A stretch of 64,000 bases of DNA from Methanothrix sp. Lineage in GTDB: Archaea > Halobacteriota > Methanosarcinia > Methanotrichales > Methanotrichaceae. The notes beneath the pieces were generated by a model. The model was not told the DNA's origin. It was given only the letters and a program-made list of their open reading frames with translations, and ran no database searches. Position numbers and translations under genes: made by a program. Below, in pieces: positions 2,669 through 64,000 of this stretch. The stretch is from contig OY821645.1 of the NCBI GenBank assembly GCA_963682135.1, positions 256,001-320,000 on the forward strand, in the 5' to 3' direction. Each line of letters starts with the position of its first letter. Position 1 is the first letter of the stretch.

Positions 2669-3646
2669 CTAATCCTTCAGCCCTTCCATAGTCACGGAGA
2701 AGACCGCCTCGCCGTCCGGCAGATTGGGCGAGTCCACCAGTCTGGCAATTCGTTTTTCGCCCTTGGACTTGCGCAGGTACAACCTGAAGGTGGACGTATG
2801 CCCCAGCACATGCCCGCCCACAGGCTTGGTGGGATCGCCAAAGAAGGTATCCGGCTTGCTCATGACCTGATTGGTCACCAGAATCAGGGCATTGTTCAGA
2901 TCGCCAAAGCGCATCAGATCGTGCAGATGCTTGTTCAGCTTCTGCTGGCGGTTGGCGAGAGTGCCGCGCCCCACATACTCTGCCCGGAAGTGGGCGGTTA
3001 CCGAGTCCACGATGATCAGGCGCACAGGATATTCCGACTCCCTCGCCTTTTCCGCCAACTCCATGGCGTTCTCCGCCAGAAGGATCTGGTGATTGGAGTT
3101 GAAGGCTCTGGCCACGCTGATGTTTTTTAAGAAATCAGCCGGATCGCGGTCCAGGCCGTCCGGTGCGGGGGGCAGGCCCTTCACCATCTGAGCGATGCGC
3201 TCCGGTCGGAAGGTGTTCTCCGTGTCGATAATAATAACCGAACCGTGCAGGCCGCCATTTTCCGTTGGCAGTTGCACGTTTATGGCCATCTGATGGGCCA
3301 CCTGTGTCTTGCCCGAGCCGAATTCGCCGTACAGCTCCACTATGGACTGAGTCTCCATACCCCCGCCCAATAGCTCATTGAAGCTCTTGCTGCCGGTGGT
3401 GATCTTGCCCACCAGGCGCCTGCGCTCCAAGATTCGGTCGCCCGTCTCAAAGCCGCCCACATCCGCAGCTTCCCGGGCCCCGGCAATGATCTTGGCAGCT
3501 GTGGCTTCTCCTACTTCTGCTGCGGCCACCAGCTCTCCAGGAGAGGCAACAGCTATAGCTTCCACGGAGCCAAAGCCGGCCTCGCGCAGCTTTTCCGCAG
3601 TGGCCGGACCCACACCCGGCAGATCTTCCAGTAATTTTGTCGGCAT
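2669..3646 (-). CDS. radA: DNA repair and recombination protein RadA
   Basis: N-terminal HhH ([15 protein letters not shown]), Walker [36 protein letters not shown]. Confidence 0.97.
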
Positions 3647-3704
3647 CTTTCCCAGTTCCTCAGAATCTTCCTCAAAGAGAATTCACAGATCTTCTTTAAC
3701 AACG

Positions 3705-4820: not shown

Positions 4821-4826
4821 TCCCGA

Positions 4827-41299: not shown

Positions 41300-41556
41300 A
41301 GCTATCTCAAAGATCTCAAATAAATAGCTTCCTGTAGTCCTGGATCAGTGGAGGAGTGATTACGAGAATGTCCATGTGCTGCCGCGGAAGACGCAAATAG
41401 GCAGATGATTAAAACCTAAGTTGAATACGTGGGACCTTTCTACCCGCAGCAAAGCGGTAAGATATTATTGGTAAATCCATTCGCAGTATTTAATATTAAA
41501 TTATGATCTGGTGTGCGGCCATTTGACTTTCTTTATTTCTAAGACATCTCCGGCAT

Positions 41557-42372
41557 TTAAAAAAAAACGTGTACAGAAAGATAGCATGGGCCGACTTGAG
41601 ATGCGATTGCATATAACCACGCCGCCCCCCTCATCTCCTCGTCTCCCGGCACCCTCGCGAGCCCCAACCTCCTCGCCAGCAGCGCAGCCTTTTCCCGCCC
41701 GAAGTAGATCTCCATGCCTTTGAGGCGCAGCAGAAGAAGAAACAGCTCCTCCTCAGGCCGAGCAGACTTAAAGAGCCCTTCCAGTTCTTTCTTAGCCTGA
41801 TCATCTTCGTCGAGCCTCGATCTAAAATCCGCTATCCTGGCTCTCAGTTTTTTATCCGCAGAGCATATCGGAAAATCATTAATCTTTCTCTGCTCTTCGC
41901 ATTTGATCAGATTCATTTTAGTCAGGTAAAGTGCAGCCACGCATACCCGCGGCTTTACAGAATGGATGCGACATCCCGGCAAGCTGAAGTCAAAAAAAGG
42001 ACAGGGCTCGCCCTCCTTTTTGCCGAGCATCCTGGCCGATCCCACTATTTCGCTCTTCAGATCATGAGGCCTTGTGTAGTCTCTCATAAAACTCTTCAGG
42101 CTCAGGCCCAGATGCCGGGCAAGCCTGCGGCAGTCATCGATGGAGACAGCAATTCCCTTTTCTTCCAGACAGCACCGGCCGCATCTCTCGCAAACGGACA
42201 GCAAGTGCAATGCTGTGTTTGACAGAAAATAGGGCTCGAATTCCGGGGAGATCATCTCATCCATCTCCTCCTTGACCAACTCCAGGTTTTTCAGCCCTCC
42301 TTGCGGTACGAGTTTTTGCAAAGCCTGCATGGCCCTTACGCCGCGATCAATTTCTTCCATTCCTAAATCCAA
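41557..42372 (-). CDS. YkgJ-family cysteine cluster protein
   Basis: CERCGRCC, CPFFD...CRIHSVKPRVC. Confidence 0.85.
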   Translation of the reverse strand: MDLGMEEIDRGVRAMQALQKLVPQGGLKNLELVKEEMDEMISPEFEPYFLSNTALHLLSVCERCGRCCLEEKGIAVSIDDCRRLARHLGLSLKSFMRDYTRPHDLKSEIVGSARMLGKKEGEPCPFFDFSLPGCRIHSVKPRVCVAALYLTKMNLIKCEEQRKINDFPICSADKKLRARIADFRSRLDEDDQAKKELEGLFKSARPEEELFLLLLRLKGMEIYFGREKAALLARRLGLARVPGDEEMRGAAWLYAIASQVGPCYLSVHVFF

Positions 42373-47591: not shown

Positions 47592-48797
47592 ATGACCCGA
47601 AAAGAAGAAAGAATGCCGATGATTGTCGAAATTAAACTTAGCAATCTGCTGTCTTTCGGACCCGATACGGAGCCATTAGCTCTAAAGAATCTCAATATGC
47701 TAATAGGCACTAATGGCTCGGGAAAGTCCAACTTCATTGAGGCAATATCCCTCCTGCGCTCCGCTCCGAGCGACATACGCGCGGTCATTCGTCGCGGGGG
47801 AGGCGTTAGTGACTGGATATGGAAAGGGGATTCAGAAGGTGTTGCCTCTATCGATGTCGTAATCGGAAATCCTCAAGGAAGCATGCCGCTACGCCATGTC
47901 CTAGCCTTTCGAAAAGTGAATCATGCATTCAGCATGGTGGAAGAACGAATCGAGAACGAGAAATCCTATCCAGATTATAATGCGCCCTATTTCTACTATA
48001 ACTATAAGGATGGAAATCCGGTTGTCAACATCAGGAACAAAGGCGAAGATGACAAAACAGAACAACGCAAACTAAAACCTGAGACAATCGATTCGGATCA
48101 ATCCATACTAGCCCAGCGACGAGATCCTGAGACATATCCAGAAATCTCATATCTGGCAAACGCTTATGATAAGATTAAGATATACCGGGAGTGGTACTTT
48201 GGACGTAACGCAGTCTTCCGCGAGCCGCAGAAGGCCGACATGCGTAATGATCGACTGGAGGAAGACTTCTCGAACTTGGGCCTGTTCCTGAACCGTCTGC
48301 GTAGAGTGCCGAAGGCGAAGAATATGATTCTCGAAGCACTTGGTGACCTCTACGAAGGCTTCGATGACTTCGATGTGAGCATCGAAGGCGGCGCGGTCCA
48401 GGTATTTTTCACCGAAGGAGATTTTACAATCCCAGCAACCAGGCTATCGGACGGGACTCTGCGATATCTCTGTTTGTTGGCGATTCTGTGCGATCCATCA
48501 CCGCCACCGCTCATCTGTATCGAGGAGCCAGAACTCGGTCTTCATCCAGACATCCTTCCTAAAGTAGCCGACCTGCTCTATGCCGCCTCAGAGCGCACTC
48601 AGTTAATCGTAACCACACACTCGGACATACTCGTCGATGCGATGACTGAGCAACCAGATGCTGTCCTCGTCTGTGAGAAGCATGATGGCCGGACAAAAAT
48701 CAGAAGACTCGAAAGCGAGAAGCTTGAAAAATGGCTGATGGACTATCGTCTGGGCGAACTCTGGACCCGTGGTGCGCTCGGGGGTACGAGATGGTGA
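47592..48797 (+). CDS. AAA_21/ABC-type ATPase
   Basis: GTNGSGKSN Walker A, LSDGTLR, IEEPELGLHP, TTHS. Confidence 0.88.
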   Translation: MTRKEERMPMIVEIKLSNLLSFGPDTEPLALKNLNMLIGTNGSGKSNFIEAISLLRSAPSDIRAVIRRGGGVSDWIWKGDSEGVASIDVVIGNPQGSMPLRHVLAFRKVNHAFSMVEERIENEKSYPDYNAPYFYYNYKDGNPVVNIRNKGEDDKTEQRKLKPETIDSDQSILAQRRDPETYPEISYLANAYDKIKIYREWYFGRNAVFREPQKADMRNDRLEEDFSNLGLFLNRLRRVPKAKNMILEALGDLYEGFDDFDVSIEGGAVQVFFTEGDFTIPATRLSDGTLRYLCLLAILCDPSPPPLICIEEPELGLHPDILPKVADLLYAASERTQLIVTTHSDILVDAMTEQPDAVLVCEKHDGRTKIRRLESEKLEKWLMDYRLGELWTRGALGGTRW

Positions 48798-49393
48798 GCG
48801 TAACGATATTTGTCGAAGGAGGCGGTGAGAGCAAAGAACTCAAATCGCGATGCCGTGAAGGTTTCAGCAAGCTCATTAAGAAAATGGGCTTTGTCGGACA
48901 TATGCCGAAAATCGTTGCTTGCGGAGGACGCAAAAATGCCTATGACATGTTCAATATAGCTATGACATCAGCTGGATATGATGAATATCCGATACTTTTG
49001 GTCGATAGCGAAGATCCGATTTCCTCGGACCGTCCTTGGGATCATCTTCATGTCCGCGACAGATGGGACCGTCCAGTTGGTGCAAACGATGATCAAGCTC
49101 AGATGATGGCGACTTGCATGGAGACGTGGATAATGGCGGATCATGAGGCCCTGCAAAAAGTATTCGGTTACTGCCTCCGGAGAGGATCTCTCATCCCGGC
49201 AAACAATTTAGAGGAAAGATCAAGGCAAGAACTGCTGGAGGCGCTCAAATCTGCTACGGATAATTGTGGAAGAAACAAAGGATACGATAAAGGAAAACGT
49301 TCATTCCAGATTTTGGCTGAACTGAATACCAGATCGCTTGAGAACTTGAGCTATTTCTGCCGGTTCAAAGAAGCACTTAGCAGGCATCTATAA
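48791..49393 (+). CDS. DUF4276-like (TOPRIM-like) protein
   Basis: IFVEGGG, IVACGGR, LLVDSE, CMETWIMAD; start overlaps the ATPase stop. Confidence 0.75.
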   Translation: MVSVTIFVEGGGESKELKSRCREGFSKLIKKMGFVGHMPKIVACGGRKNAYDMFNIAMTSAGYDEYPILLVDSEDPISSDRPWDHLHVRDRWDRPVGANDDQAQMMATCMETWIMADHEALQKVFGYCLRRGSLIPANNLEERSRQELLEALKSATDNCGRNKGYDKGKRSFQILAELNTRSLENLSYFCRFKEALSRHL

Positions 49394-50935: not shown

Positions 50936-51466
50936 ATGTCAGATCCATTTATTGGCGAAATCAGATTGTTTGCAGGCAATTTTGCGCCACTTGACTGGGC
51001 ATTTTGCGACGGCCAGATTATGCAAATAGCTCAAAACACGGCTCTATACTCCATCCTGGGCACAACGTACGGAGGAGATGGAAAGACAACATTTGCTCTG
51101 CCCAATCTCATGGGAAGGATTCCCCTTAGTTTTGGGCAGGGGCCCGGACTCACTAAACATGAACTGGGCGAGACATTTGGAAGCGAGACCATCACACTGA
51201 GCGCAAATCAGATGTCAGCGCACAGTCATTCCGCCACCGTCAAAGCTGCAAACGCTGGCACCACCAATCAGCCGCAAAATAACCTCTTTGGCAAGATCGC
51301 CAGATCTAATATTTATAATACGCCTGATGCAGCTCTAGCAAACATGGCCGAAGGATCTCTTTCCCTGTCTAATTCCGGTGGATCTCAGCCTCATTCCAAT
51401 ATGCAGCCATACTTGACTTTAAGCTTCATCATCTGCGTTTATGGACTCTATCCTGTAAGGGATTAG
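50936..51466 (+). CDS. Phage tail-collar domain protein (microcystin-dependent-protein-like) 1
   Basis: FIGEIRLFAGNFAP..WAFCDGQ...ALYSILGTTYGGDG.TTFALP.L.GR; HSH; PH.NMQPY...FII...G.YP.R. Confidence 0.92.
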   Translation: MSDPFIGEIRLFAGNFAPLDWAFCDGQIMQIAQNTALYSILGTTYGGDGKTTFALPNLMGRIPLSFGQGPGLTKHELGETFGSETITLSANQMSAHSHSATVKAANAGTTNQPQNNLFGKIARSNIYNTPDAALANMAEGSLSLSNSGGSQPHSNMQPYLTLSFIICVYGLYPVRD

Positions 51467-51541: not shown

Positions 51542-52072
51542 ATGTCAGAAGGATTTATTGGTGAGATAAGAATGTTTGCAGGCGGTTTTGCTCCACAAGG
51601 TTGGATGGAGTGCAACGGACAGGTCCTGACCATATCTCAATATAATGCGCTCTACAGTATTCTGGGTATAGCATATGGCGGCAATGGAACGACGACCTTT
51701 GCTCTTCCCAATCTCAATGGGCGGGTGCCGATGCATTTCGGCCAGGGACAGGGACAAAACCACATCATTGGCGAGTCGGCAGGATCGAGCAGTGTGGCAT
51801 TTTCAGTTGATCAAATGCCTACCCATTCGCATAACGCCAGACTGAAGGGAGCGAGCCAGGGCAACAGGGATTCGCCCGCTGGAAATGTACCAGGCGCTAC
51901 TGCAGGCATCAAGGCATACAGTCAGTCCTCCGGAGGCACTCTGGCCAATATGGATGGGCAGTCTGTGGTCATCGGCAATGCCGGTGCATCTGCGCCACAC
52001 GAGAATATGCAGCCATATATCGTTACGAATTTCATAATCTGCGTGTCAGGAATCTATCCGTCGCGATCATAA
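51542..52072 (+). CDS. Phage tail-collar domain protein 2
   Basis: Same motifs as paralog 1; GGAG RBS; HSH. Confidence 0.92.
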   Translation: MSEGFIGEIRMFAGGFAPQGWMECNGQVLTISQYNALYSILGIAYGGNGTTTFALPNLNGRVPMHFGQGQGQNHIIGESAGSSSVAFSVDQMPTHSHNARLKGASQGNRDSPAGNVPGATAGIKAYSQSSGGTLANMDGQSVVIGNAGASAPHENMQPYIVTNFIICVSGIYPSRS

Positions 52073-52087
52073 ATTGGAGGAAATTAC

Positions 52088-52621
52088 ATGGACCCATACC
52101 TAGGCGAGATAAAGATATTCGCAGGAACATATGCACCCATGGGCTGGATGATGTGCCAGGGTCAGATTCTACCTATATCTGGAAATGACGCACTTTTTGC
52201 AGTAATAGGTGCCACCTACGGAGGAGACGGCGTAACCAACTTCGCTCTACCGGACTTTCGAGGAAGAGTGCCTCTTGGATACAGTACAAGCTATCCATTA
52301 GGGCAGAAAGACGGATATGAGACGGTAGCGCTCGCTGCAGATAATCTTCCGGTGCACGGCCACCCGGGTCAGGTAAAATGTACCAATAGGAGCGACTCTG
52401 AAACTCCAGGCGGAAATGTACCTAGTGCCGCAGTGATTTCCAGTACTGATGCTCCGAGGAACGAATATGTCCCGTCGGCAGGTCAGACGCTGGTAGATCT
52501 TGCCAGCAGTTGCGTTTCCATCGATCCGGCAGGCGGATCCGTTGCTCATCAGAATATTCAGCCTTCTATGGCATTGAACTTTATCATAGCAGTGGAAGGG
52601 ATCTTTCCAACCAGGGGATGA
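52088..52621 (+). CDS. Phage tail-collar domain protein 3
   Basis: Same motifs; GGAGG RBS; HGH. Confidence 0.92.
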   Translation: MDPYLGEIKIFAGTYAPMGWMMCQGQILPISGNDALFAVIGATYGGDGVTNFALPDFRGRVPLGYSTSYPLGQKDGYETVALAADNLPVHGHPGQVKCTNRSDSETPGGNVPSAAVISSTDAPRNEYVPSAGQTLVDLASSCVSIDPAGGSVAHQNIQPSMALNFIIAVEGIFPTRG

Positions 52622-53164
52622 ATGAAAGGAAGAGAGTCGGGCAGTCCGGAAGGCTGCTGTTGGAGCTATTTAGGCTCGCGGCTGACACTGCGCCCTGCAT
52701 GCCGGGAGGATGATCTGTTTCTTTTTCATCTCTTTTGCAGCATTCGCGAACCTGACTTCGCCTTTCTTGGAGAATTGGAAAGGAAAAAAATAATGGAATT
52801 GCAATTTGCCGCCCAGCAGAGACACTATCAGGCGAATATGCCTGAGGCGGAGCACCTGATTGTCCTTCAGGATGGCGGGTCGATTGGCAGAATGATCCTC
52901 CTTCAGAGGAATGATGAGTTGCATCTGGCAGAGATCGCCCTTTTGCCTGAGCATAGGAACCATGGGATCGGCAGCATATTGATTAAAGAACTTATTAAGG
53001 CTGAGGCAGAACAGGGGCATGCGATCAGGCTGCAGGTCTACAATCATAGCGCAGCGGTGCGTTTCTATCAGCGATTGGGTTTTGTAAAGGCAAGAGATGA
53101 TGGTGCTTACTTGTTTCTGGAAAAGCTTCCCACAATCGGGGGCGATGGTGGGAACATATTTTAA
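52622..53164 (+). CDS. GNAT family acetyltransferase
   Basis: IALLPEHRNHGIGS acetyl-CoA motif, A.RFYQRLGF, LQFAAQQRHY; abuts the third collar gene. Confidence 0.9.
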   Translation: MKGRESGSPEGCCWSYLGSRLTLRPACREDDLFLFHLFCSIREPDFAFLGELERKKIMELQFAAQQRHYQANMPEAEHLIVLQDGGSIGRMILLQRNDELHLAEIALLPEHRNHGIGSILIKELIKAEAEQGHAIRLQVYNHSAAVRFYQRLGFVKARDDGAYLFLEKLPTIGGDGGNIF

Positions 53165-53347
53165 AATAGCGATTAAATTGAAATTTAATTAATAATATTA
53201 TTATTAAGCGGCATGGTAGGGGGCCAAATTAATGAACTATATCGGTCATTACGGCAATGAATCCTTAATTGAGGGTCTTTCAGGGCAGATATTCCGTATT
53301 TTATTGAATGAATTGATTATTCCTTTAAAGGTTCAAGGAGACGCGCA

Positions 53348-56300
53348 ATGTCTCCAATAATGGCAAGATCGGCAGGAATCTGCCTTGCCGCACTTCTTAT
53401 TATGCTGGCGGCGACTGCTCCAGCCAGCGGCGCCTGCACTATGAGCGTTTCCAGGATCGGGACGGCTTCTGATGCCAACGGCGTTTTCGTCTTGAATGAT
53501 AAGGTGTATATCGCATCGACAAATGGACATTACATCATTATGCCTTTGAGCAGCCTGGTTGCAACATCGGATTTTAATATTGGAGGCTCACCGTATGACG
53601 TATTTGTATCGGGTAGTACTGCTTATCTGACCGATTTTTATAGCAGCAATGGAGTCAGGGTTGTCAATGCAGATACGGGGGCCCCTCTGGGAGAATGCAC
53701 CAACTGGCCTTCAGGTCTTTCTGCCATCGGCATTTATAACTCCGGCAGCTACGCCTATGTGGGAGCAACTGACTACACGAACGGCTACCTTGTTGTCTTG
53801 AGCCTGACAACTCCTAACTCACCGAGCGTTGTCAATACCATTTCAAGCGGCCCTATGGCTCAGGGCGGAGGCGGCCTATGTGTTACCGATGGCAAGATTT
53901 ACCTGGCAACCGATAATGGCGTGGATGAATTCACCCTCGGTAACCCAGCCAGTCCCTCCTACTCGGGAACCATTTCTACGCCCTATGGCGCATATGATGT
54001 TCACGTATTCGGCACCAATGCCTATGTTGTTATGGGAACAAATCCGCCTTCCGGCCAACCCAATGTAGTGGTCCTTGACCTCGCTAATTCAGGCACCCAG
54101 ACAGACTGTTATTATGATAGCACTCCGTCTTATGCCCTCCCGCCTTATGCCATCCAGTTCTACAATGGAAAAATATACATCGTTGATCCGAACGGACTCA
54201 AAGAATTGAGCGTAGGATCGGTGTCGGGATCGCTGACCGTTAACCTGGATGCCGTTCCAAATAATGCTCAGGACTTCACCTTCTCAGGCGACCTGGGAAG
54301 CTTCATTCTAGATGACGATAGCGATGACACCTATCCCAGCACCAAGACATTCAGCAGTCTGGCAGCAGGATACTATGCATTCCATCAGACGGTGCCATCA
54401 GGCTGGATCGTGAGCAGCATAACGGCATCAGATGCCAGCAAGGTCACGTACAGCAGCGATGGCAACTCGTGGCACAGCACCTTCACTTCCGGCGATACCT
54501 GGGCGAAGGCCTCAGTACAGGCCGGCGGCAGCACCCTGACGGTAAATTTCCAGGATACCAGAGTTTATTCCATCTCCGGGCATGTGATTTACGATCTGGA
54601 CGGCAACGGGGCTAAGAATAATTTTGAAGGCTACGTGCCCAACGGCTGGGTGGTGCAGCTTTGGAAAGATGGCACACAGACCTCTCAGACAACAACTCTG
54701 AGCGGCGCTTATTCATTCAGCAATCTTCCTGCCGGAAATTACGAGGTAAGGTCCATCTTGCAGACCGGCTGGGTGAATACCATCCCTGCAACCGGAATTC
54801 GCAGCTATTCGCCTCTCTCCTCAGATCAGACCAATCAGGACTTCGGAGTCCGCGGCAGCCAGTCCATTGCCGGCATGAAGTTTCACGACCTTGATGGCGA
54901 TAGAGCCAAGGATGCAGGCGAGCCGGGCCTGGCGAGCTGGACCATCGATCTGAAGAAAGACGGCAATAAGATAGCCAGCACTCAGACCGCTGCCGGAGGC
55001 GCATATTCTTTTGCCGGCCTGGCGCCGGGCAGCTACACCGTCGAGGAGACTCTGCAGTCCGGTTGGATACAGTCCTACCCCGCCTCGCCAGGCACACATG
55101 CAGTAACACTGGTCGCAGGAGTTGCCGGACCGACAGATAAGGACTTTGGCAATTACCAGACTACCGGATTTTCCGGCGTGAAATTCGAGGATCTCAATGG
55201 CAATGGTGCCAAGGATGCGGGCGAGCCGGGCATCTCTGGCTGGACCATTAAACTCAAGCAAGGCGCAACTGAGATCGCCAGCACCCAAACAGGCACAGTC
55301 GGAGCTTATTCCTTTACCGGAATTGCCCCTGGCAGCTACACTGTAGAAGAAGTGGCTCAGAGCGGCTGGACGCAGTCCTATCCTGCAACGCCCGGCACTT
55401 ATCCATTAACTCTAGTCTCGGGAGTTGCCGGGCCGACGGACATCAATTTCGGCAACTTGCGATCCACCGGATTTTCCGGCGTGAAATTCGAGGATCTCAA
55501 TGGCAATGGTGCCAAAGATGCGGGCGAGCCGGGTCTATCCGGCTGGACCATTAAACTCAAGCAAGGCGCAACTGAGATCGCCAGCACCCAAACAGGAACA
55601 GTCGGAGCTTATTCCTTTACCGGAATTGCCCCTGGCAGCTACACTGTAGAAGAAGTGGCTCAGAGCGGCTGGACGCAGTCCTATCCTGCAACGCCCGGCA
55701 CTTATCCATTAACTCTGGTCTCGGGAGTTGCCGGGCCGACGGACATCAATTTCGGCAACTGGCGGGCCACTGGATTTTCCGGCATGAAGTTTGAAGACCT
55801 CAACGGCAATGGAGCCAAGGATGCAGGCGAGCCGGGCATCTCAGGCTGGACCATCAAACTCAAGCAAGGGGCAACCGAGATCACCAGCATCCAAACCGGT
55901 ACAGGCGGAGCCTATTCCTTTACCGGAATTGCCCCCGGCAGCTACACTGTAGAAGAAGTGGCTCAGAGCGGCTGGACCCGATCCTATCCTGCCTCGCCGG
56001 GCACTCATTCATTAACTCTGGTCTCGGGAGTCGCCGGACCGACGAATATTGATTTCGGCAACTGGAAATCGACCGGTCTTTCTGGCGTGAAGTTTGAAGA
56101 TCTCAACGGCAATGGGGCCAAGGATACAGGAGAGCCCGGCATCTCAGGCTGGACAATTAAGCTCATGAGCGGCGCAACCGAGATTGCAAGCACCCAGACC
56201 GGCGCGGGCGGAGCCTATTCCTTCGCCGGCATTTCTCCCGGCAGCTATACCGTCAAGGAAGAAGTCGAGAGCGGTTGGACGCAGTCCTATCCTGCAACGC

Positions 56301-59300
56301 CCGGCACTTATCCATTAAATCTGGTATCGGGAGTCGCCGGCCCGACTAACATCGACTTTGGCAACTGGAAATCGACCGGTCTTTCTGGCGTGAAGTTTGA
56401 AGATCTCAACGGCAATGGTGCCAAGGATACAGGAGAGCCTGGCATCTCAGGGTGGACAATTAAGCTCATGAGCGGCGCAACAGAGATTTCAAGCACCCAA
56501 ACCGGTGCCGACGGCAGCTATTCCTTCGCCGGCATTGCGCCCGGCAGCTACACTGTAACGGAAGCTATGCAGCCCGGCTGGACGCAGTCCTATCCTGCAA
56601 CGCCCGGCACTTATCCATTAACTCTGATCTCGGGAGTCGCCGGACCGGCGAACATCAATTTCGGTAACTGGCGCACCACTGGTCTCTCGGGCATGAAATT
56701 CGAGGATCTCAACGGCAACGGTGCCAAGGATGCAGGCGAGCCCGGCATCTCAGGCTGGACAATTAAACTCATGAGCGACGCAACCGAGATTGCAAGCACC
56801 CAAACCGGTGCCGACGGCAGCTATTCCTTCACCGGCATTGCACCCGGCAGCTACACCATAGAAGAAGTAGCCCAGGGCGGCTGGACGCAATCCTATCCTG
56901 CAACGCCCGGCACTTATCCATTAACTCTGATCTCGGGAGTCGCCGGACCAACGAACATCAATTTCGGTAACTGGCGCACCACTGTTTTCTCCGGCATGAA
57001 ATTCGAAGATCTCAACGGCAACGGGGCCAAGGATGCAGGCGAGCCGGGCCTAAAGGACTGGACCATCAAGCTCATGAACGGCGCAACAGAGATTTCAAGC
57101 ACCCAGACCGGCGCCGATGGCGCCTATTCCTTCACCGACATTGCGCCCGGCAGCTACACCGTAGAGGAGGCTATGCAGGCTGGCTGGGCTCGGACTTATC
57201 CCGCCTCGCCAGGCACGCATACGATAAACCTGGTCTCAGGAGTCGCCGGCCCGACTAACATCAATTTCGGCAATGCCAGAGCTACTGGTTTTTCCGGAAT
57301 GAAATTCGAAGATCTTAACGGCAATGGTGCCAAGGATTTAGGCGAGCCGGGCCTCGAGGGCTGGACAATTAAGCTCATGAGTGGCGCAACAGAGATTGCA
57401 AGCACCCAGACCGATGCCGATGGAGCCTATTCCTTCACCGACATTTCTCCTGGCAGCTATACCGTCAAGGAAGAGGTCAAGAGCGGTTGGACGCAGTCCT
57501 ATCCTGCAACGCCCGGCACTTATCCATTAACTCTGATCTCGGGAGTCGCCGGCCCGACTAACATCGACTTTGGCAACTGGAAATCAACCGGTCTTTCTGG
57601 CGTGAAGTTTGAAGATCTCAACGGCAACGGTGCCAAGGATACAGGAGAGCCCGGCATCTCAGGCTGGACAATTAAGCTCATGAGCGGCGCAACCGAGATT
57701 GCAGGCACCCAAACCGGCGCCGATGGAGCCTATTCCTTCACCGACATTGCGCCCGGAAGCTATACTGTGGAGGAAACTGCGCAAGCTGGCTGGACGCAGT
57801 CCTATCCTGCAACGCCCGGCACTTATCCATTAACTTTGGTGTCGGGAGTTGCCGGACCAAATAACATCGATTTCGGTAACTGGCGCACCACTGGTCTCTC
57901 GGGCATGAAATTCGGGGATCTCAACGGCAACGGTGCCAAGGATGCAGGCGAGCCGGGTCTAAAGGACTGGACCATTAAGCTCATGAGCGGCGCAACAGAG
58001 ATTGCGAGCACCCAGACCGGCGCCGATGGAGCCTATTCCTTCACCGGCATTGCTCCAGGCAGCTACACCGTAGAAGAAGTAGCCCAGAGCGGCTGGACGC
58101 AGTCTTATCCTGCAGCGCCCGGCACGTATCCAGTAACTTTGTCTTCGGGATTGCTGGCTGCTAATATCGATTTCGGCAACTGGAAAGCAACCGGTTTCAC
58201 GGGCCTGAAGTTCGAGGATCTCAACGGCAACGGGGCCAAGGATGCAGGCGAGCCGGGCCTCGAGGGCTGGACAATTAAGCTCATGAGTGGCGCAACCGAG
58301 ATTTCAAGTACCCAGACCGATGCCGATGGAGCCTATTCTTTCACCGACATTGCTCCCGGTAGCTACACCGTCGAGGAGGCTATGCAGGCTGGCTGGGCTC
58401 AGACTTGTCCCGCCTCACCAGGCACGCATACGATAAACCTGGTCTCAGGAGTTGCCGGACCGACGAACATCAATTTCGGCAATGCCAGAGGTACCGGCTT
58501 TTCCGGCATGAAATTCGAGGATCTCAACGGCAATGGTGCCAAGGATGCAGGCGAAACGGGCCTTGAGGGCTGGACCATTAAGCTCATGAGCGGCGCAACA
58601 GAGATTGCAAGCACCCAGACCGATGCCGATGGCAGTTATTCTTTCATCGGCATTACTCCCGGTAGCTACACCGTGCAAGAAGAAGCCCAGGCAGGCTGGA
58701 CGCAGTCTTATCCTGCAACGCCCGGCACTTATCCATTAAATCTGGTATCGGGAGTTGCCGGGCCGACTAACATCGACTTCGGCAACTGGAAAGCAACCGG
58801 TCTTTCTGGCGTGAAGTTTGAAGATCTCAACGGCAACGGTGCCAAGGATACAGGAGAGCCCGGCCTCACTGGCTGGACCATTAAGCTCATGAGCGGCGCA
58901 ACAGAGATTGCAAGCACCCAAACCAATGTCGATGGCGCCTATTCCTTCACCGGCATTGCGCCCGGCAGCTACACTGTAACGGAAGCTATGCAGCCCGGCT
59001 GGACGCAGTCCTATCCTGCAACGCCCGGCACTTATCCATTAACTCTGGTGTCGGGAGTCGCCGGACCGACGAACATCAATTTCGGTAACTGGCGCACCAC
59101 TGGTCTCTCGGGCATGAAATTCGAGGATCTCAACGGCAACGGTGCCAAGGATGCAGGCGAGCCCGGCATCTCAGGCTGGACCATTAAGCTCATGAGCGAC
59201 GCAACCGAGATTGCAAGCACCCAAACCGGTGCCGACGGCAGCTATTCCTTCACCGGCATTGCACCCGGCAGCTACACTGTAGAAGAAGTAGCCCAGAGCG

Positions 59301-62300
59301 GCTGGACGCAATCCTATCCTGCAACGCCCGGCACTTATCCATTAACTCTGATCTCGGGAGTCGCCGGACCGACGGACATCAATTTCGGCAACTGGCGCAC
59401 CACTGGTTTCTCCGGCATGAAATTCGAAGATCTCAATGGAAATGGTGCCAGGGATGCAGGCGAGCCGGGCCTAAAGGACTGGACCATCAAGCTCATGAAC
59501 GGCGCAACAGAGATTTCAAGCATCCAGACCGGCGCCGATGGCGCCTATTCCTTCACCGACATTGCGCCCGGCAGCTACACCGTAGAGGAGGCTATGCAGG
59601 CTGGCTGGGCTCGGACTTATCCCGCCTCGCCAGGCACGCATACGATAAACCTGGTCTCAGGAGTCGCCGGCCCGACTAACATCAATTTCGGCAATGCCAG
59701 AGCTACTGGTTTTTCCGGAATGAAATTCGAAGATCTTAACGGCAATGGTGCCAAGGATGCAGGCGAGCCGGGCCTCGAGGGCTGGACCATTAAGCTCATG
59801 AGCGGTGCAACCGAGATTTCGAGCACCCAGACCGATGCCGATGGAGCCTATTCCTTCACCGACATTTCTCCTGGCAGCTATACCGTCAAGGAAGAGGTCA
59901 AGAGCGGTTGGACGCAGTCTTATCCTGCAACGCCCGGCACTTATCCATTAAATCTAGTATCGGGAGTAGCCGGCCCGACTAACATCGACTTCGGCAACTG
60001 GAAAGCAACCGGTCTTTCTGGCGTGAAGTTTGAAGATCTCAACGGCAATGGTGCCAAGGACGCAGGCGAAACGGGCATCTCAGGCTGGACAATTAAACTC
60101 AAGCAAGGAACAACCGAGATCTCCAGCACCCAGACAGGCACAGGCGGTGCTTATTCCTTTACCGGCATTGCCCCCGGCAGCTACACTGTAGAAGAAGTGG
60201 CTCAGATCGGCTGGACGCAGTCCTATCCTGCCTCTCCGGGCACTCATTCATTTACTCTGGTATCGGGAGTTGCCGGACCAACTAACATCGATTTCGGTAA
60301 CTGGCGCACCACCGGTCTCTCGGGCATGAAATTCGAGGATCTCAACGGCAACGGTGCCAAGGATGCAGGCGAGCCGGGCCTCAAAGACTGGACCATTAAG
60401 CTCATGAGCGGTGCAACAGAGATTGCAAGCACCCAAACCGGTGCCGACGGCAGCTATTCCTTCACCGGCATTGCACCCGGCAGCTACACCATAGAAGAAG
60501 TAGCCCAAGGCGGCTGGACGCAGTCTTATCCTGCAGCGCCCGGCACTCATTCGTTAGCTCTGGCCTCGGGAGTCGCCGGACCAACGGACATCAATTTCGG
60601 CAACTGGCGCACCACTGGTCTCTCGGGCATGAAATTCGAAGATCTCAACGGCAATGGTGCCAGGGATGCAGGCGAGCCGGGCCTAAAGGACTGGACCATC
60701 AAGCTCATGAGCGGCGCAACCGAGATTTCAAGTACCCAGACCGATGCCGATGGCGCCTATTCCTTCACCGACATTGCGCCCGGCAGCTACACCGTCGTGG
60801 AGGCTATGCAGGCTGGCTGGGCTCAGACCTATCCCGTCTCGCCAGGCACGCATTCGATAAACCTGGTCTCAGGAGTTGCCGGCCCGACTAACATCAATTT
60901 CGGCAATGACAGGGCTACTGGTTTTTCCGGAATGAAATTCGAAGATCTTAACGGCAATGGTGCCAAGGATGCAGGCGAGCCGGGCCTTGAGGGCTGGACC
61001 ATTAAGCTCATGAGCGGTGCAACCGAGATTGCAAGCACCCAGACCGATGCCGATGGCGCCTATTCCTTCACCGACATTGCACCCGGCAGCTACACTGTCA
61101 AGGAAGAGGTCAAGAGCGGCTGGACTCAGTCCTATCCTGCAACGTCCGGCACTTATCCATTAACTCTGGTGTCAGGTGTCGCCGGACCGACTAACATCGA
61201 CTTCGGCAACTGGAAATCGACCGGTCTTTCTGGCGTGAAGTTTGAAGATCTCAACGGCAACGGTGCCAAGGATGTAGGCGAGCCGAGCCTTGAGGGCTGG
61301 ACCATTAAGCTCATGAGCGGCGCAACCGAGATTTCAAGCACCCAGACCGATGCCGATGGCGCTTATTCTTTCATCGACATTGCACCCGGCAGCTACACGG
61401 TCAAGGAAGAAGTCAAGAGCGGCTGGACTCAGTCCTATCCTGCGTCACCAGGCACGCATGCAATCACTCTGGTCTCGGGATTGCCAGTTACTAATATCGA
61501 TTTCGGCAACTGGAAATCGACTGGATTTTCCGGCGTGAAGTTCGAGGACAACAACGGCAATGGAGCTAAGGACGCAGGCGAGCCGGGCCTCAAAGACTGG
61601 ACCATCAAGCTTATGAAAGGCACAACAGTGGTTTCGGTCATCCCGACCGATGCCGATGGCGCCTATTCCTTCACAGACATTGCACCCGGCAGCTACACCG
61701 TCGAGGAAGCTGCGCAAGCTGGCTGGACGCAGTCCTATCCCGCCTCGCCAGGCATGCAGACCGTTAACCTGGTCTCAGGTGTGATCGGGCCGAAAAATGT
61801 CGATTTCGGCAACTGGCGTAGCACAGGTTTCTCGGGCATGAAGTTCGAGGACCTCAATGGTAACGGTGCCAAAGATAGCGGTGAACCGGGTCTGTTCGGC
61901 TGGGCCATCGTGCTTAAGAAAGGCGAAACAGTTGTTTCGGTCACCCAGACTGACCCCGACGGCGTTTATTCCTTCGCAGACATTGCACCCGGCAGCTACA
62001 CCGTCGAGGAGGCTATGCAATCAGGCTGGACTCAGACAAATCCCATATGGCCAGGCACGCATTCAGTGACACTGGTATCAGGAATAGCTGGACCGAATAA
62101 TATCGATTTTGGTAACGCGAGAACTACAGGCTTTTCCGGTCTGAAGTTCGAGGATCTCAACGGCAATGGGGCCAAGGACGCAGGCGAGCCGGGCCTCAAA
62201 GACTGGACCATCAAACTCATGAGCGGTGCAACCGAGATCTCCAGCACCCAGACAGCAGCCGATGGCAGTTATTCTTTCATCGGCATTACTCCCGGTAGCT

Positions 62301-64000
62301 ACACCGTGCAAGAGGAAGCCCAGGCAGGCTGGACGCAGTCTTATCCTGCAACGCCCGGCACTTATCCATTAACTCTGGTGTCGGGAGTTGCCGGACCGAC
62401 GGACATTGATTTCGGCAACTGGAAATCGACCGGTTTTTCCGGTATGAAGTTCGAAGATCTCAACGGCAATGGGGCCAAGGACGCAGGCGAGCCGGGCCTC
62501 AAAGACTGGACCATCAAACTCATGAGCGGTGCAACCGAGATCTCCAGCACCCAGACAGCAGCCGATGGCAGTTATTCTTTCATCGGCATTACTCCCGGTA
62601 GCTACACCGTGCAAGAAGTAGCCCAGGCAGGCTGGACGCAGTCTTATCCCGCCTCGCCAGGCACGCATGCAATCACTCTGGTATCAGGAGTGGCCGGACC
62701 GACGGACCTCGATTTCGGCAACTGGAAATCGACCGGCTTTTCCGGCCTGAAGTTCGAAGATCTCAACGGCAATGGAGCCAAAGATGCGGGCGAGCCGGGT
62801 CTGGCTGACTGGACCATCAGGATTATGAAAGGTGCAACAGTGGTTGCCAGCGCCCTGACATTGGCCGACGGTGCTTATTCTTTCACCGGCATTGCGCCCG
62901 GAAGCTACATTGTGGAGGAAACTGCGCAAGCTGGCTGGACTCAGTCCTATCCCGCCTCGCCAGGCACCCAGACCGTTAACCTGGTCTCGGGAGCAGCCGG
63001 ACCGAATGACATTGATTTCGGAAACTGGAGAGCGACCGGTTTCTCGGGAATGAAGTTTAATGACCTGGATAGAAATGGTGCCAGGGATGCAGGCGAGCCC
63101 GGCCTCTCAGGCTGGACCATTAAGCTCATGAAAGGTGCAACCGAGACCTCCAGCACTCAAACAGCAGCCGATGGCAGCTATTCTTTCACCGACATTGCTC
63201 CTGGCAGCTACACCGTGCAAGAGGCAGCCCAATCCGGCTGGGTTCAGTCCTATCCAGCAACGCCCGGAATGCATCCAATCACCCTGGTATCGGGAATAGC
63301 TGGACCGACTGACATTGACTTCGGCAACCGTGGCTCTCTCGCTATCTCCGGCATGAAATTCCATGACAAGAATGCCAACGGCATACAGGATGATGGCGAG
63401 CCGGGTCTCTCAGGCTGGGATATCCAGCTTAAAGATAGCAGCGATAATCTCTTGCAGACCGCCACTACCAGCGCGGAGCCTGGCAAGGAGGGAGTCTATG
63501 AGTTTGCGGATCTGCCGCCGGGAACCTATCGGGTCTACGAGGCACCCAAAACCGGCTGGGTTCGGACTGCACCCGCGGAGGATCACTACGTAATAACCCT
63601 AACTGATTCATCCTCCCGGGGAAATCTCTTTGGCAACAATCAGCTTGCCATCTCCGGTATGAAGTTCCATGATAAGAACGCCAACGGCATAAAGGATGAT
63701 GGCGAGCCGGGTCTCTCCGGCTGGCAGATTCAGCTCAAAGACGGCAGCGACAACCTCCTGCAAACCGTCACCACCAGCTCAGATCCTGGCAAGGAAGGAG
63801 TCTACGAGTTCCTGGATTTGCAGCCCGGCACCTATCATGTCTACGAGATCCAGCAGGATGGCTGGATTCGGACTGCTCCAGATCAGGAGTACCATTCTGT
63901 GACCCTGTCCAACATGCCCTCCCGGGGAAATATGTTCGGAAACAATCTTGTGAATCTCTCCGGCACGAAGTTTGAGGACCTCAACGGCAACGGAGCGAAA
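53348..64000 (+). CDS. Giant secreted surface protein (>3550 aa, partial): LVIVD-like propeller, prealbumin-like domain, about 31 SdrD-B-like repeats
   Basis: Missing from the ORF track because there is no stop in the window. AAGGAG RBS; MSPIMARSAGICLAALLIMLAATAPASG signal peptide; DVFVSGSTAYL and YLVVLSLTTPNSP blades; repeats SG.KFEDLNGNGAKDAGEPG..GWTIKL...G.YSF..IAPGSYTV.E...GW.QSYP...FGN. The last codon at 64000 is in frame with the start. Confidence 0.93.
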   Translation, partial: MSPIMARSAGICLAALLIMLAATAPASGACTMSVSRIGTASDANGVFVLNDKVYIASTNGHYIIMPLSSLVATSDFNIGGSPYDVFVSGSTAYLTDFYSSNGVRVVNADTGAPLGECTNWPSGLSAIGIYNSGSYAYVGATDYTNGYLVVLSLTTPNSPSVVNTISSGPMAQGGGGLCVTDGKIYLATDNGVDEFTLGNPASPSYSGTISTPYGAYDVHVFGTNAYVVMGTNPPSGQPNVVVLDLANSGTQTDCYYDSTPSYALPPYAIQFYNGKIYIVDPNGLKELSVGSVSGSLTVNLDAVPNNAQDFTFSGDLGSFILDDDSDDTYPSTKTFSSLAAGYYAFHQTVPSGWIVSSITASDASKVTYSSDGNSWHSTFTSGDTWAKASVQAGGSTLTVNFQDTRVYSISGHVIYDLDGNGAKNNFEGYVPNGWVVQLWKDGTQTSQTTTLSGAYSFSNLPAGNYEVRSILQTGWVNTIPATGIRSYSPLSSDQTNQDFGVRGSQSIAGMKFHDLDGDRAKDAGEPGLASWTIDLKKDGNKIASTQTAAGGAYSFAGLAPGSYTVEETLQSGWIQSYPASPGTHAVTLVAGVAGPTDKDFGNYQTTGFSGVKFEDLNGNGAKDAGEPGISGWTIKLKQGATEIASTQTGTVGAYSFTGIAPGSYTVEEVAQSGWTQSYPATPGTYPLTLVSGVAGPTDINFGNLRSTGFSGVKFEDLNGNGAKDAGEPGLSGWTIKLKQGATEIASTQTGTVGAYSFTGIAPGSYTVEEVAQSGWTQSYPATPGTYPLTLVSGVAGPTDINFGNWRATGFSGMKFEDLNGNGAKDAGEPGISGWTIKLKQGATEITSIQTGTGGAYSFTGIAPGSYTVEEVAQSGWTRSYPASPGTHSLTLVSGVAGPTNIDFGNWKSTGLSGVKFEDLNGNGAKDTGEPGISGWTIKLMSGATEIASTQTGAGGAYSFAGISPGSYTVKEEVESGWTQSYPATPGTYPLNLVSGVAGPTNIDFGNWKSTGLSGVKFEDLNGNGAKDTGEPGISGWTIKLMSGATEISSTQTGADGSYSFAGIAPGSYTVTEAMQPGWTQSYPATPGTYPLTLISGVAGPANINFGNWRTTGLSGMKFEDLNGNGAKDAGEPGISGWTIKLMSDATEIASTQTGADGSYSFTGIAPGSYTIEEVAQGGWTQSYPATPGTYPLTLISGVAGPTNINFGNWRTTVFSGMKFEDLNGNGAKDAGEPGLKDWTIKLMNGATEISSTQTGADGAYSFTDIAPGSYTVEEAMQAGWARTYPASPGTHTINLVSGVAGPTNINFGNARATGFSGMKFEDLNGNGAKDLGEPGLEGWTIKLMSGATEIASTQTDADGAYSFTDISPGSYTVKEEVKSGWTQSYPATPGTYPLTLISGVAGPTNIDFGNWKSTGLSGVKFEDLNGNGAKDTGEPGISGWTIKLMSGATEIAGTQTGADGAYSFTDIAPGSYTVEETAQAGWTQSYPATPGTYPLTLVSGVAGPNNIDFGNWRTTGLSGMKFGDLNGNGAKDAGEPGLKDWTIKLMSGATEIASTQTGADGAYSFTGIAPGSYTVEEVAQSGWTQSYPAAPGTYPVTLSSGLLAANIDFGNWKATGFTGLKFEDLNGNGAKDAGEPGLEGWTIKLMSGATEISSTQTDADGAYSFTDIAPGSYTVEEAMQAGWAQTCPASPGTHTINLVSGVAGPTNINFGNARGTGFSGMKFEDLNGNGAKDAGETGLEGWTIKLMSGATEIASTQTDADGSYSFIGITPGSYTVQEEAQAGWTQSYPATPGTYPLNLVSGVAGPTNIDFGNWKATGLSGVKFEDLNGNGAKDTGEPGLTGWTIKLMSGATEIASTQTNVDGAYSFTGIAPGSYTVTEAMQPGWTQSYPATPGTYPLTLVSGVAGPTNINFGNWRTTGLSGMKFEDLNGNGAKDAGEPGISGWTIKLMSDATEIASTQTGADGSYSFTGIAPGSYTVEEVAQSGWTQSYPATPGTYPLTLISGVAGPTDINFGNWRTTGFSGMKFEDLNGNGARDAGEPGLKDWTIKLMNGATEISSIQTGADGAYSFTDIAPGSYTVEEAMQAGWARTYPASPGTHTINLVSGVAGPTNINFGNARATGFSGMKFEDLNGNGAKDAGEPGLEGWTIKLMSGATEISSTQTDADGAYSFTDISPGSYTVKEEVKSGWTQSYPATPGTYPLNLVSGVAGPTNIDFGNWKATGLSGVKFEDLNGNGAKDAGETGISGWTIKLKQGTTEISSTQTGTGGAYSFTGIAPGSYTVEEVAQIGWTQSYPASPGTHSFTLVSGVAGPTNIDFGNWRTTGLSGMKFEDLNGNGAKDAGEPGLKDWTIKLMSGATEIASTQTGADGSYSFTGIAPGSYTIEEVAQGGWTQSYPAAPGTHSLALASGVAGPTDINFGNWRTTGLSGMKFEDLNGNGARDAGEPGLKDWTIKLMSGATEISSTQTDADGAYSFTDIAPGSYTVVEAMQAGWAQTYPVSPGTHSINLVSGVAGPTNINFGNDRATGFSGMKFEDLNGNGAKDAGEPGLEGWTIKLMSGATEIASTQTDADGAYSFTDIAPGSYTVKEEVKSGWTQSYPATSGTYPLTLVSGVAGPTNIDFGNWKSTGLSGVKFEDLNGNGAKDVGEPSLEGWTIKLMSGATEISSTQTDADGAYSFIDIAPGSYTVKEEVKSGWTQSYPASPGTHAITLVSGLPVTNIDFGNWKSTGFSGVKFEDNNGNGAKDAGEPGLKDWTIKLMKGTTVVSVIPTDADGAYSFTDIAPGSYTVEEAAQAGWTQSYPASPGMQTVNLVSGVIGPKNVDFGNWRSTGFSGMKFEDLNGNGAKDSGEPGLFGWAIVLKKGETVVSVTQTDPDGVYSFADIAPGSYTVEEAMQSGWTQTNPIWPGTHSVTLVSGIAGPNNIDFGNARTTGFSGLKFEDLNGNGAKDAGEPGLKDWTIKLMSGATEISSTQTAADGSYSFIGITPGSYTVQEEAQAGWTQSYPATPGTYPLTLVSGVAGPTDIDFGNWKSTGFSGMKFEDLNGNGAKDAGEPGLKDWTIKLMSGATEISSTQTAADGSYSFIGITPGSYTVQEVAQAGWTQSYPASPGTHAITLVSGVAGPTDLDFGNWKSTGFSGLKFEDLNGNGAKDAGEPGLADWTIRIMKGATVVASALTLADGAYSFTGIAPGSYIVEETAQAGWTQSYPASPGTQTVNLVSGAAGPNDIDFGNWRATGFSGMKFNDLDRNGARDAGEPGLSGWTIKLMKGATETSSTQTAADGSYSFTDIAPGSYTVQEAAQSGWVQSYPATPGMHPITLVSGIAGPTDIDFGNRGSLAISGMKFHDKNANGIQDDGEPGLSGWDIQLKDSSDNLLQTATTSAEPGKEGVYEFADLPPGTYRVYEAPKTGWVRTAPAEDHYVITLTDSSSRGNLFGNNQLAISGMKFHDKNANGIKDDGEPGLSGWQIQLKDGSDNLLQTVTTSSDPGKEGVYEFLDLQPGTYHVYEIQQDGWIRTAPDQEYHSVTLSNMPSRGNMFGNNLVNLSGTKFEDLNGNGAK
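54570..64000 (+). repeat. About 303-bp coding tandem repeat array (about 31 full units plus start of another)
   Basis: The ttcgaggatctcaacggcaa motif recurs near 55183, 55486, 55789 ... 63971 at about 300-307 bp spacing. Confidence 0.97.

Follow-up and report, generated by a model that had tools for sequence, protein, structure and literature searches.

A giant Methanothrix gene encodes a probable sheath adhesin with a propeller head and a long SdrD_B stalk

A giant reading frame that crosses the edge of the window

This study concerns a very long protein-coding gene, a candidate for a sheath adhesin, that begins in a stretch of 64,000 nucleotides from Methanothrix sp. (assembly GCA_963682135.1, contig OY821645.1, positions 256,001 to 320,000 of the forward strand; hereafter called the window). 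An earlier note on this DNA had reported a hidden open reading frame (ORF) that runs on the + strand from an ATG at position 53348 to the window end, a length of 3551 codons. Translation bears out this frame, which is free of stop codons across the window and appears as open at its 3′ end when ORFs with open ends are listed. It is hidden only in the sense that the ORF track does not, by default, report frames that leave the source sequence, and this frame goes unlisted because it crosses the window edge; an open-ends option is needed to recover it. In the genome as a whole, the frame spans 5316 codons and ends at genome position 325298, which is equivalent to window position 69298.

This very long gene is genuine and belongs to a Methanothrix-like methanogen. 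An in-frame stop codon lies 12 codons 5′ of its ATG, and the AT-rich spacer that precedes it includes TTTAAA and GGAG elements that may serve as promoter and ribosome-binding sites, respectively. A sigma-70 promoter scan was disregarded as uninformative for an archaeon. The predicted product has a mass of 554.6 kDa, a pI of 4.5, 12 Cys residues, and 551 Asp and Glu residues versus 311 Lys and Arg residues. Its parts are as follows:

53165..53347, + strand: AT-rich spacer of 183 nucleotides, with TTTAAA about 20-25 nucleotides and GGAG about 8-11 nucleotides before the ATG (read from the sequence).
53348..53434, + strand: signal peptide, residues 1 to about 29 (...TAPASGA / C30).
53435..54217, + strand: head, a predicted six-bladed beta-propeller related to LVIVD proteins, residues ~30-290 (phmmer, AlphaFold2 (AF2), and Foldseek).
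54260..54565, + strand: putative prealbumin-like (SpaA-type) linker domain, residues 305-406.
54566..64000 (in the window), + strand: SdrD_B repeat stalk, with repeats R1-R31 whole and R32 cut (Pfam, alignment, and Tandem Repeats Finder (TRF)).
Genome 322683-325298 (outside the window), + strand: C-terminal (anchor) module, residues 4446-5316, with four DUF11 domains, DUF7507, and TIGR01451.
Residues 4686-4891 and 4894-5035, + strand: two domains in tandem that resemble the core of SH (sheath) proteins (profile search, hhalign, and AF2).

A propeller head behind a signal peptide

The sole hydrophobic segment in the entire protein covers residues 1-32 (Kyte-Doolittle window of 19, above 1.6), which agrees with the signal peptide proposed in the earlier note. 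This call was made by hydropathy and not with a dedicated predictor, and cleavage would be expected at about residue 29/30.

The region that follows had been described as an LVIVD-like propeller. The Pfam LVIVD model (PF08309) does not match residues 1-420 at E ≤ 1, and the head likewise has no match at E ≤ 1 in Pfam, in NCBIfam, or among PDB sequences, but other lines of evidence favor the propeller assignment. A phmmer search of 1.84 billion representatives yielded 3526 relatives of the head at E ≤ 0.001 and 13 at E ≤ 1e-30, the best at 6e-43. Nine relatives were scanned with Pfam (eight picked among the 150 phmmer matches listed, plus the protein P0015); eight of these have between 7 and 16 LVIVD repeats, and the remaining one, a close orthologue, escapes the LVIVD model, as does the query. 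The AF2 model of the head (7 sequences) has a mean predicted local distance difference test (pLDDT) value of 75.8, rising to about 90 over the first 260 residues, and consists of 24 strands in six groups of four. When this model was compared with the PDB using Foldseek, at least 500 beta-propellers were matched at E ≤ 0.001 (best 6e-10), including Bacteroides surface lipoproteins, BamB, and the Methanosarcina surface-layer YVTN propeller 1l0q (E 5e-9, 20% identity).

Because of its LVIVD-bearing relatives, its AF2 model, and its matches to PDB propellers, we consider the head to be a six-bladed propeller, and to be a divergent relative of LVIVD propellers rather than a member of that family as the Pfam model defines it. 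It was on surface proteins of Methanosarcina that the definition of the LVIVD repeat was based (PMC2447325). Like those LVIVD and YVTN proteins (PMC2447325; PDB 1l0q), the head would be an archaeal surface propeller that sits beside Ig-like domains. Unlike them, it falls beyond the reach of the LVIVD model and fits its six blades into about 260 residues.

Between the head and the stalk, residues 305-406 may form the prealbumin-like domain that had been claimed for this position. The SpaA_4 model matches at E 0.29, which is below threshold, and AF2 pLDDT values over this stretch are 40-69, but relatives that are 38-49% identical across it bear PF24514, PF17802, or PF19403.

A stalk of SdrD_B repeats

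The stalk accounts for most of the protein. The earlier note had counted about 31 repeats of 101 amino acids, and 31 are indeed whole in the window, but the full protein has 40 of them (residues 407-4445), with a period of 100-102 amino acids and with R40 ending at genome position 322682. TRF resolves the DNA into arrays of 303 bp × 27.9, then 306 bp × 2, and then 303 bp × 7.7. The assignment of these repeats to the SdrD_B/Cna-B type holds: Pfam SdrD_B (PF17210) matches 10 stretches in 1000 amino acids with E 1e-147 and 483.5 bits versus a cut-off of 29.7, and the repeats align loop on loop with the B domains of Staphylococcus aureus SdrD (PDB 10ps_A, E 1.8e-13; also 4jdz).

Each repeat had also been credited with a characteristic loop. 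A strict 12-residue pattern, D-x-[DN]-x-[DN]-G-x-x-D-x-x-E, fits 29 of the 31 repeats that the window contains whole and 38 of the full 40, and a looser form is found in all 40. The exact string given in the earlier note, DLNGNGAKDAGE, occurs in 16 repeats. By analogy with SdrD, these EF-hand-like loops would bind Ca2+ and stiffen the 40-domain stalk. If each domain adds about 4 nm, a figure that applies to Cna-B-type domains, the stalk would be roughly 150 nm long.

The repeats are under purifying selection. Among pairs from R3 to R29 (n = 350), the median ratio of nonsynonymous to synonymous substitution rates (dN/dS) is 0.17 and the median dS is 0.79, and all pairs fall below 1. The median DNA identity among repeats is about 75%, and a higher-order periodicity is superimposed on this divergence: the closest partner of each repeat from R6 to R23 is 4, 8, or 12 units away (up to 97.7% DNA identity), and for R34 to R39 it is 3 units away (up to 99%). 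The protein has 18 sequons (N-x-S/T), 17 of which are in the last 870 amino acids and one in the stalk of about 4000 amino acids. We attach no significance to this scarcity, given that a single unit underlies all 40 repeats. Over window positions 54001-64000, the GC content rises to 0.55-0.57 because of the array, and the AT skew is steadily positive (about +0.10 to +0.12), in comparison with the flanks. This shift reflects the composition of the repeated unit and is no evidence of foreign origin.

The likeness of some repeats to one another is also the ground for an alternative in which a genuine gene carries an array that is in part an artefact of assembly, with fewer or more than 40 repeats in the organism. 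The longest exact repeat within the gene is 324 bp, and the DNA of units spaced 3, 4, or 8 positions apart is 93-99% identical. Furthermore, the short-read contigs of four public runs (from two studies) break inside the array and none spans it, one of them joins back by 906 bases, or 3 units, and metagenome orthologues are shorter. A second contig joint, which skips 9446 bases, was disregarded because it has only 20 letters on one side. Against this alternative, the genome is a single contig of 3,043,341 bases with no N, neither the frame nor the repeat phase is broken at any point in the 5316 codons, and most repeats differ by 20-25% in DNA (dS of about 0.8). In addition, contigs with at least 99% identity cover every one of the 30 bins of the gene in each of the 4 runs, which are possibly the assembly's own source. 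We judge an artefact of this kind to be unlikely.

Orthologues of the gene differ in the extent of the stalk. Among the 60 other genomes of the family, a whole head is found in one (G042), at 36% identity in a frame of 3085 amino acids from stop to stop, and four more genomes match the prealbumin part only. From its first ATG, the G042 orthologue has 3071 amino acids, with 5 loop-bearing repeats and the same root and tail. A contig from a Methanothrix metagenome-assembled genome (MAG; L052) encodes the head at 71% identity, and a full-length metagenome orthologue of 3088 amino acids has 17 loop-bearing repeats. Stalk length therefore varies among orthologues (5, 17, and 40 loop-bearing repeats), with the caveat that metagenome assemblies may collapse repeats.

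A C-terminal module shared by a family of giant proteins

The earlier note had proposed that a C-terminal anchor, such as PGF-CTERM or a transmembrane segment, would be found beyond the window. The adjoining sequence encodes neither. In its place is an 870-residue module that includes two SH-like cores. The last 300 amino acids have no hydrophobic segment (top hydropathy of 0.9), the last 200 contain neither LPxTG nor PGF, and an NCBIfam search with the protein returned neither PGF-CTERM nor another sorting-signal family. Judged by its sequence, the protein is without the features of an archaeosortase substrate or a sortase anchor.

The same module ends about 10 other long frames of the genome, which range from 1414 to 6167 amino acids from stop to stop (1339-6159 from the first Met). 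The following are giant paralogues with the shared C-terminal module:

Genome 1987610-2006113, - strand.
Genome 2751185-2761819, + strand.
Genome 1857723-1866764, - strand.
Genome 1392439-1400187, - strand.
Genome 353226-360080, - strand.
Genome 2770415-2777413, - strand.
Genome 1712289-1719029, - strand.
Genome 1665916-1670316, + strand.
Genome 2714196-2718440, + strand.

A hydrophobic segment is present at the N terminus of all but one of the paralogues and at the C terminus of none, and most end in W-x-PP-[DE]-W-G-L-[DN] followed by Cys. Their N-terminal parts differ, and what they have in common is the unit of DUF11 domains, SH-like domains, and Cys-containing tail. The longest paralogue (6159 amino acids, with 20 EF-hand-like loops) exceeds the protein studied here. 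Four sequons in the module (N4766, N4834, N5100, and N5146) are invariant across 9 of 9 aligned paralogues. Outside this genome, the module is found behind diverse N-terminal parts in proteins whose source name is Methanothrix sp. Two fragments of the module that are 69-73% identical to the one studied here and interrupted by TAA and TGA codons (genome 2573193-2573616 and 2573699-2574181, both - strand) are probably the remains of a decayed paralogue.

These comparisons bear on an alternative in which the topology is reversed. In such an arrangement, the N terminus would be held at the membrane, either by an uncleaved signal anchor or by a lipid on Cys30, and the head would lie near the cell with the DUF11/SH-like module at the distal end. 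A Cys residue does occur directly after a stretch of small residues behind the hydrophobic segment. However, ASGA-C is a poor lipobox, lacking at position -3 the Leu that the motif expects, and the signal peptides of the paralogues are ordinary ones without such a Cys. The family shares its C-terminal module and not its N terminus, and a ligand-binding propeller placed at the membrane beneath a closed sheath would make little sense. We therefore regard this arrangement as highly improbable.

A tandem pair of sheath-protein-like domains

Between the DUF11 domains of the module is a stretch of 350 amino acids that belongs to no family and carries strongly conserved motifs. When a profile of this stretch was searched against all 4047 ORFs of the genome with at least 120 amino acids, it matched the paralogues, a 513-residue protein, and 14 small ORFs (160-346 amino acids), the last with E values from 6e-10 to 4e-5. 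An alignment of 13 of these small ORFs, from which the 160-residue fragment was left out, was then compared with the module using hhalign, which gave 99.0% (E 9e-18) for the whole, 99.3% (E 3e-20) for the first half, and 96.7% (E 4e-10) for the second half. The two halves match each other at 98% (E 1.6e-13), and a control comparison of SdrD repeats with the small proteins gave 0.5%. These scores indicate that the stretch is a tandem pair of a single domain that also occurs free-standing as small secreted proteins. AF2 predicts the pair (9 sequences) as an all-beta structure of 18 strand elements, 10 of which are 18-22 residues long, with a pLDDT of 91.3 and a predicted template modeling (pTM) score of 0.84.

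Existing databases have little to say about these domains. PHROGs has no family for the SH-like region or the small proteins, and Pfam has none for five of the seven small or mid-size proteins scanned. Searched against PDB sequences, the C-terminal module gave one match at E 0.089, and its profile gave a best E of 0.032. One small sheath-like protein has 2420 relatives, and the source names of the 120 listed are all "hypothetical" or absent. A cluster of five genes for small sheath-like proteins (258-392 amino acids), which supplies five of the small ORFs matched by the profile, is located at genome 2097526-2104211 on the - strand, and scattered copies are present at genome positions 242549, 1075663, 1432986, 1920831, 2016822, 2022089, 2539113, 2812041, and 2941070. 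Several of the small proteins are 82-99% identical to one another.

The literature suggests a name for the domain. The SH proteins defined by Medvedeva et al. (ISME J 2024, PMC11576556) have a signal peptide, and their core is built of two antiparallel beta-sheets with six strands each. As many as 40 such proteins occur per Methanotrichales genome, and their caps face outward. According to the same paper, every member of the Methanotrichales has SH proteins with Ig-like extensions, which are called "sheath adhesins" and are proposed to replace membrane-anchored adhesins. Parts of Table S2 of that paper include Methanotrichales SH proteins of 1000-4560 amino acids annotated with "2 core domains." The small proteins of the present genome share long letter-for-letter stretches, as judged by eye, with the Methanothrix viral "sheath-like" proteins in the portion of Supplementary Data 1 of PMC11576556 that was compared.

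The distribution of the two-domain stretch was also determined. Of 60 other family genomes, 58 have it; each of these contains 1-12 matches, and the frames that carry them reach 5901 amino acids. Among 400 other genomes sampled from the phylum, it is present in 12 of 12 from its own family, in 7 of 54 from another (all in a single genus), in 1 of 64 from a third, and in none of the rest. This patchiness fits what is described for Methanotrichales and ANME-1 in the consulted text of PMC11576556.

A probable sheath adhesin as the best explanation

The head-on-stalk adhesin that the earlier note had envisioned is still the best reading of the protein, and its C terminus now suggests how it is held. 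We consider it likely that the gene encodes a secreted sheath adhesin of 5316 amino acids that is rooted in the hoops of the sheath and carries its head on a Ca2+-stiffened stalk. In every feature that sequence can address, the protein fits the kind of molecule that PMC11576556 describes in the portions available.

The proposed mechanism has five steps. First, the protein would be exported by the Sec pathway, and its SH core-like pair (residues 4686-5035) would be built into the cross-beta hoops of the tubular sheath beside the small sheath proteins. This pair, which is homologous to those proteins, would thereby root the molecule without a membrane anchor. Second, the DUF11 flanks, the four conserved sequons, a WLxCC motif, and the Cys-rich acidic tail (W-x-PP-E-W-G-L-D...C..CxC) are probably parts that serve in capping, glycosylation, and disulfide linkage; disulfides tie rings together in the Methanospirillum hungatei sheath (PMC10593813). 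Third, the 40 SdrD_B domains would bind Ca2+ through their EF-hand-like loops and form a stiff stalk, as suggested by S. aureus SdrD. Fourth, the propeller, whose fold is predicted with good agreement to known structures, would bind a ligand on other filaments, partner cells, or particles from the far end of the stalk. Fifth, unequal recombination among super-units of three and four repeats may alter the length of the stalk between strains.

The protein might instead be a released matrix or fiber protein. In this case, it would be secreted and unrooted, and its SH-like domains would self-assemble or stick to the exterior of the sheath to produce a scaffold for the granule matrix. No membrane or covalent sorting signal was found in the protein, its very acidic composition (pI 4.5) suits cation bridging, and its SH-like domains are of an amyloid-like, self-associating kind (PMC10593813; PMC11576556, in part). 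However, the two-core module is constant in place in about 10 paralogues with differing passenger parts, and this constancy fits a shared docking device better than it fits ten different matrix proteins. Moreover, the published model, in the sections of PMC11576556 at hand, places such proteins in the hoops. A released protein thus seems to us rather improbable.

The protein might also be an internal structural part, associated, for example, with the spacer plugs or with the gap between cell and sheath. In this case, it would serve as a ruler or tie and would not reach outward as an adhesin. A role in supporting plugs has been suggested for SH proteins with small caps (PMC11576556, in the passages available), and the base loops of M. 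hungatei SH proteins face inward and are proposed binding sites for plug proteins (PMC10593813). In opposition to this placement, the caps are reported to face the exterior (same passages of PMC11576556), and a stalk of about 150 nm would be too long for the narrow space beneath the sheath. A core structural part would also be expected everywhere, whereas the head-plus-stalk gene is sporadic, with a full head in one of the 60 other family genomes. We consider an internal role to be very unlikely.

Several observations weigh against the sheath adhesin interpretation or parts of it. The label "sheath protein" rests on the structure-based classification of one paper and on a by-eye reading of printed viral sequences. 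The sheath model of M. hungatei has been deposited in EMDB only (EMD-29442) and not in the PDB (PMC10593813), and for this reason the sheath-root step relies on homology and on the classification of PMC11576556. A Foldseek search with the SH-like model gave 0 matches at E ≤ 0.001 in the PDB or BFVD, and the best E for the small-protein profile against PDB sequences was 0.41. VIA-align likewise returned only a background level of long antiparallel sheets (best Z 8.3, root mean square deviation 8.2 Å), with neighbors such as TonB receptors, porins, and OspA. The extra domains of published SH proteins are described as "caps" in the text seen of PMC11576556. In the G042 orthologue, most repeats are without the loop pattern (5 loops in 3071 amino acids), and Ca2+ binding is thus not a conserved need of the gene. 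The 324-bp exact repeat and the contig breaks described above also count here: the figure of 40 repeats is unconfirmed because no contig spans the array and the runs may be the assembly's own source. Finally, the only listed RNA run contained a fraction of 0.05 of the sampled words.

Comparison with known surface proteins

The closest counterparts are the sheath adhesins of PMC11576556. As portrayed in the available parts of that paper, they share with our protein the lineage (by the names of homologues), a signal peptide, two SH-core-like domains, and the presence of several paralogues per genome. The chain of Ig-like domains corresponds here to 40 SdrD_B domains, the tentative prealbumin-like domain, and four DUF11 domains. 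At 5316 amino acids, the present protein exceeds every entry in the two parts of Table S2 examined, where the longest has 4560, and no entry of its length occurs in the table. The text portions of PMC11576556 make no reference to SdrD_B domains with EF-hand-like loops, an LVIVD propeller head, DUF11 flanks, a Cys-rich tail, or collar and acetyltransferase genes, and its supplementary figures may show similar architectures. The term "sheath adhesin" appeared in the literature searched only in PMC11576556 and in one unrelated Helicobacter pylori paper. No text joining Methanothrix and SdrD was found, and the portions covered of a paper on the transcriptome of Methanothrix soehngenii in co-culture do not mention such proteins under the terms searched.

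S. aureus SdrD has 5 B repeats, fewer than the 40 of the giant archaeal protein. The two proteins (PDB 4jdz and 10ps for SdrD) have in common the SdrD_B family, the D-x-N-x-N-G-x-x-D/E-x-G-E loop, and a ligand-binding part held off the cell. SdrD, a bacterial protein, carries at its N terminus an A domain of the DEv-IgG type, also contains a Ser-Asp (SD) repeat, and is fixed to peptidoglycan through an LPXTG sortase anchor. The giant protein lacks all three and is for that reason not one of the microbial surface components recognizing adhesive matrix molecules (MSCRAMMs). The same building principle is also employed by the ice-binding adhesin of Marinomonas primoryensis and by SiiE, in which tens of Ca2+-rigid Ig-like domains carry ligand-binding domains far from the cell. 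Those proteins use BIg repeats, type I secretion, and outer-membrane anchoring. The giant protein has a different repeat family and is not homologous to them as far as tested.

Among archaea, the protein MTCT_1020 of Methanothermobacter sp. CaT2 provides a precedent with genetic data. A nonsense mutation in its gene abolishes aggregation, and enhancement of aggregation by Ca2+ or Mg2+ is seen with the wild type only, as reported in part of PMC6759345. Both proteins are methanogen surface proteins with a signal peptide and Cna-B-like repeats (annotated as Ca binding in MTCT_1020) followed by DUF11 domains. MTCT_1020 differs in having a membrane-spanning end and 11 DUF11 domains, no SH-like core, and no propeller described in the consulted sections of PMC6759345, and its host has pseudomurein and no sheath.

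Because proteins of the "sheath adhesin" kind are already in print (PMC11576556), the giant protein is less novel than the earlier note implied. It is an unusually large member of a kind first described in 2024 and, as an observation, is still an ordinary giant repeat adhesin of that kind. Its anatomy suggests how an organism that is wrapped in a sheath and has no exposed membrane could display a long fiber, namely by fusing it to copies of the building block of the tube. The findings support and sharpen the 2024 proposal of sheath adhesins, which has so far been based on predicted structures. The module with the two cores, which also has invariant sequons and a tail rich in Cys, might be a marker for the surface repertoire of these archaea and perhaps a handle for the display of cargo on sheaths.

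Methanothrix is the principal methanogen that uses acetate in digesters and wetlands, and we know of no Methanothrix adhesin that has been tested. Knocking out genes is not yet a routine procedure in this genus. The gene offers a concrete candidate with a separable head, a predicted Ca2+ stalk, and a putative sheath root. Members of this genus are widely held to seed granules (PMC10495608, in part).

Neighboring genes and other features of the window

Four genes on the same strand lie directly upstream of the spacer:

50936-51466, + strand: phage-tail-collar gene (PF07484), Pfam Collar E 1.5e-27.
51542-52072, + strand: phage-tail-collar gene (PF07484), Pfam Collar E 7.5e-28.
52088-52621, + strand: phage-tail-collar gene (PF07484), Pfam Collar E 1.7e-26.
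52622..53164, + strand: GNAT acetyltransferase gene, with the collar trio on one side and the giant gene on the other, Pfam Acetyltransf_7 E 6e-15 and Acetyltransf_1 E 1.7e-13.

The three tandem collar genes, whose products have no signal peptides, are the only collar genes of the genome, and PHROGs groups collar proteins with tail and tail-fiber proteins. Collar genes were found in 5 of the 60 other family genomes, with the trio only in G042. The order of all five genes is kept in G042 (contig L045, 10943-13183, minus strand), where the outer flanks differ, and on the MAG contig L052 (3485-5761), where the GNAT gene was judged by ORF size and order only. The collar trio and the GNAT gene are possibly an accessory block of the giant gene. 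All three of the head-bearing genomes have this block upstream of the giant gene. Because the three genomes are kin, the conserved order is a lead and not functional proof.

A more ambitious version of the sheath adhesin interpretation would include these neighbors. The giant protein and its approximately 10 paralogues might constitute a molecular glue with which Methanothrix filaments start granules and catch syntrophic partners. Each protein would be a Ca2+-switched tether to the sheath whose reach is tuned between strains by recombination among super-repeats, and the three collar proteins and GNAT would form a working part, for example as a trimeric tip, an adaptor, or a modifier. We view this proposal as doubtful. 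A review states, in the part consulted, that Methanosaeta/Methanothrix starts granulation and that 100-1000 mg/L Ca2+ improves granulation (PMC10495608). If the proposal were true, it would provide a protein basis for the granulation that these organisms initiate and for its enhancement by Ca2+.

Two additional features of the window were noted. A low-GC island at positions 38001-42000 (0.33-0.39 versus about 0.5 around it) contains a minus-strand ORF of 463 amino acids (39908-41299) with a hydrophobic N terminus and Asn-rich repeats. At positions 47592-49393, two overlapping + strand ORFs encode a protein of 401 amino acids with a Walker-A motif (GTNGSGKS) and a partner of 220 amino acids, which may resemble the pairs of an ATPase and a small partner seen in defense systems.

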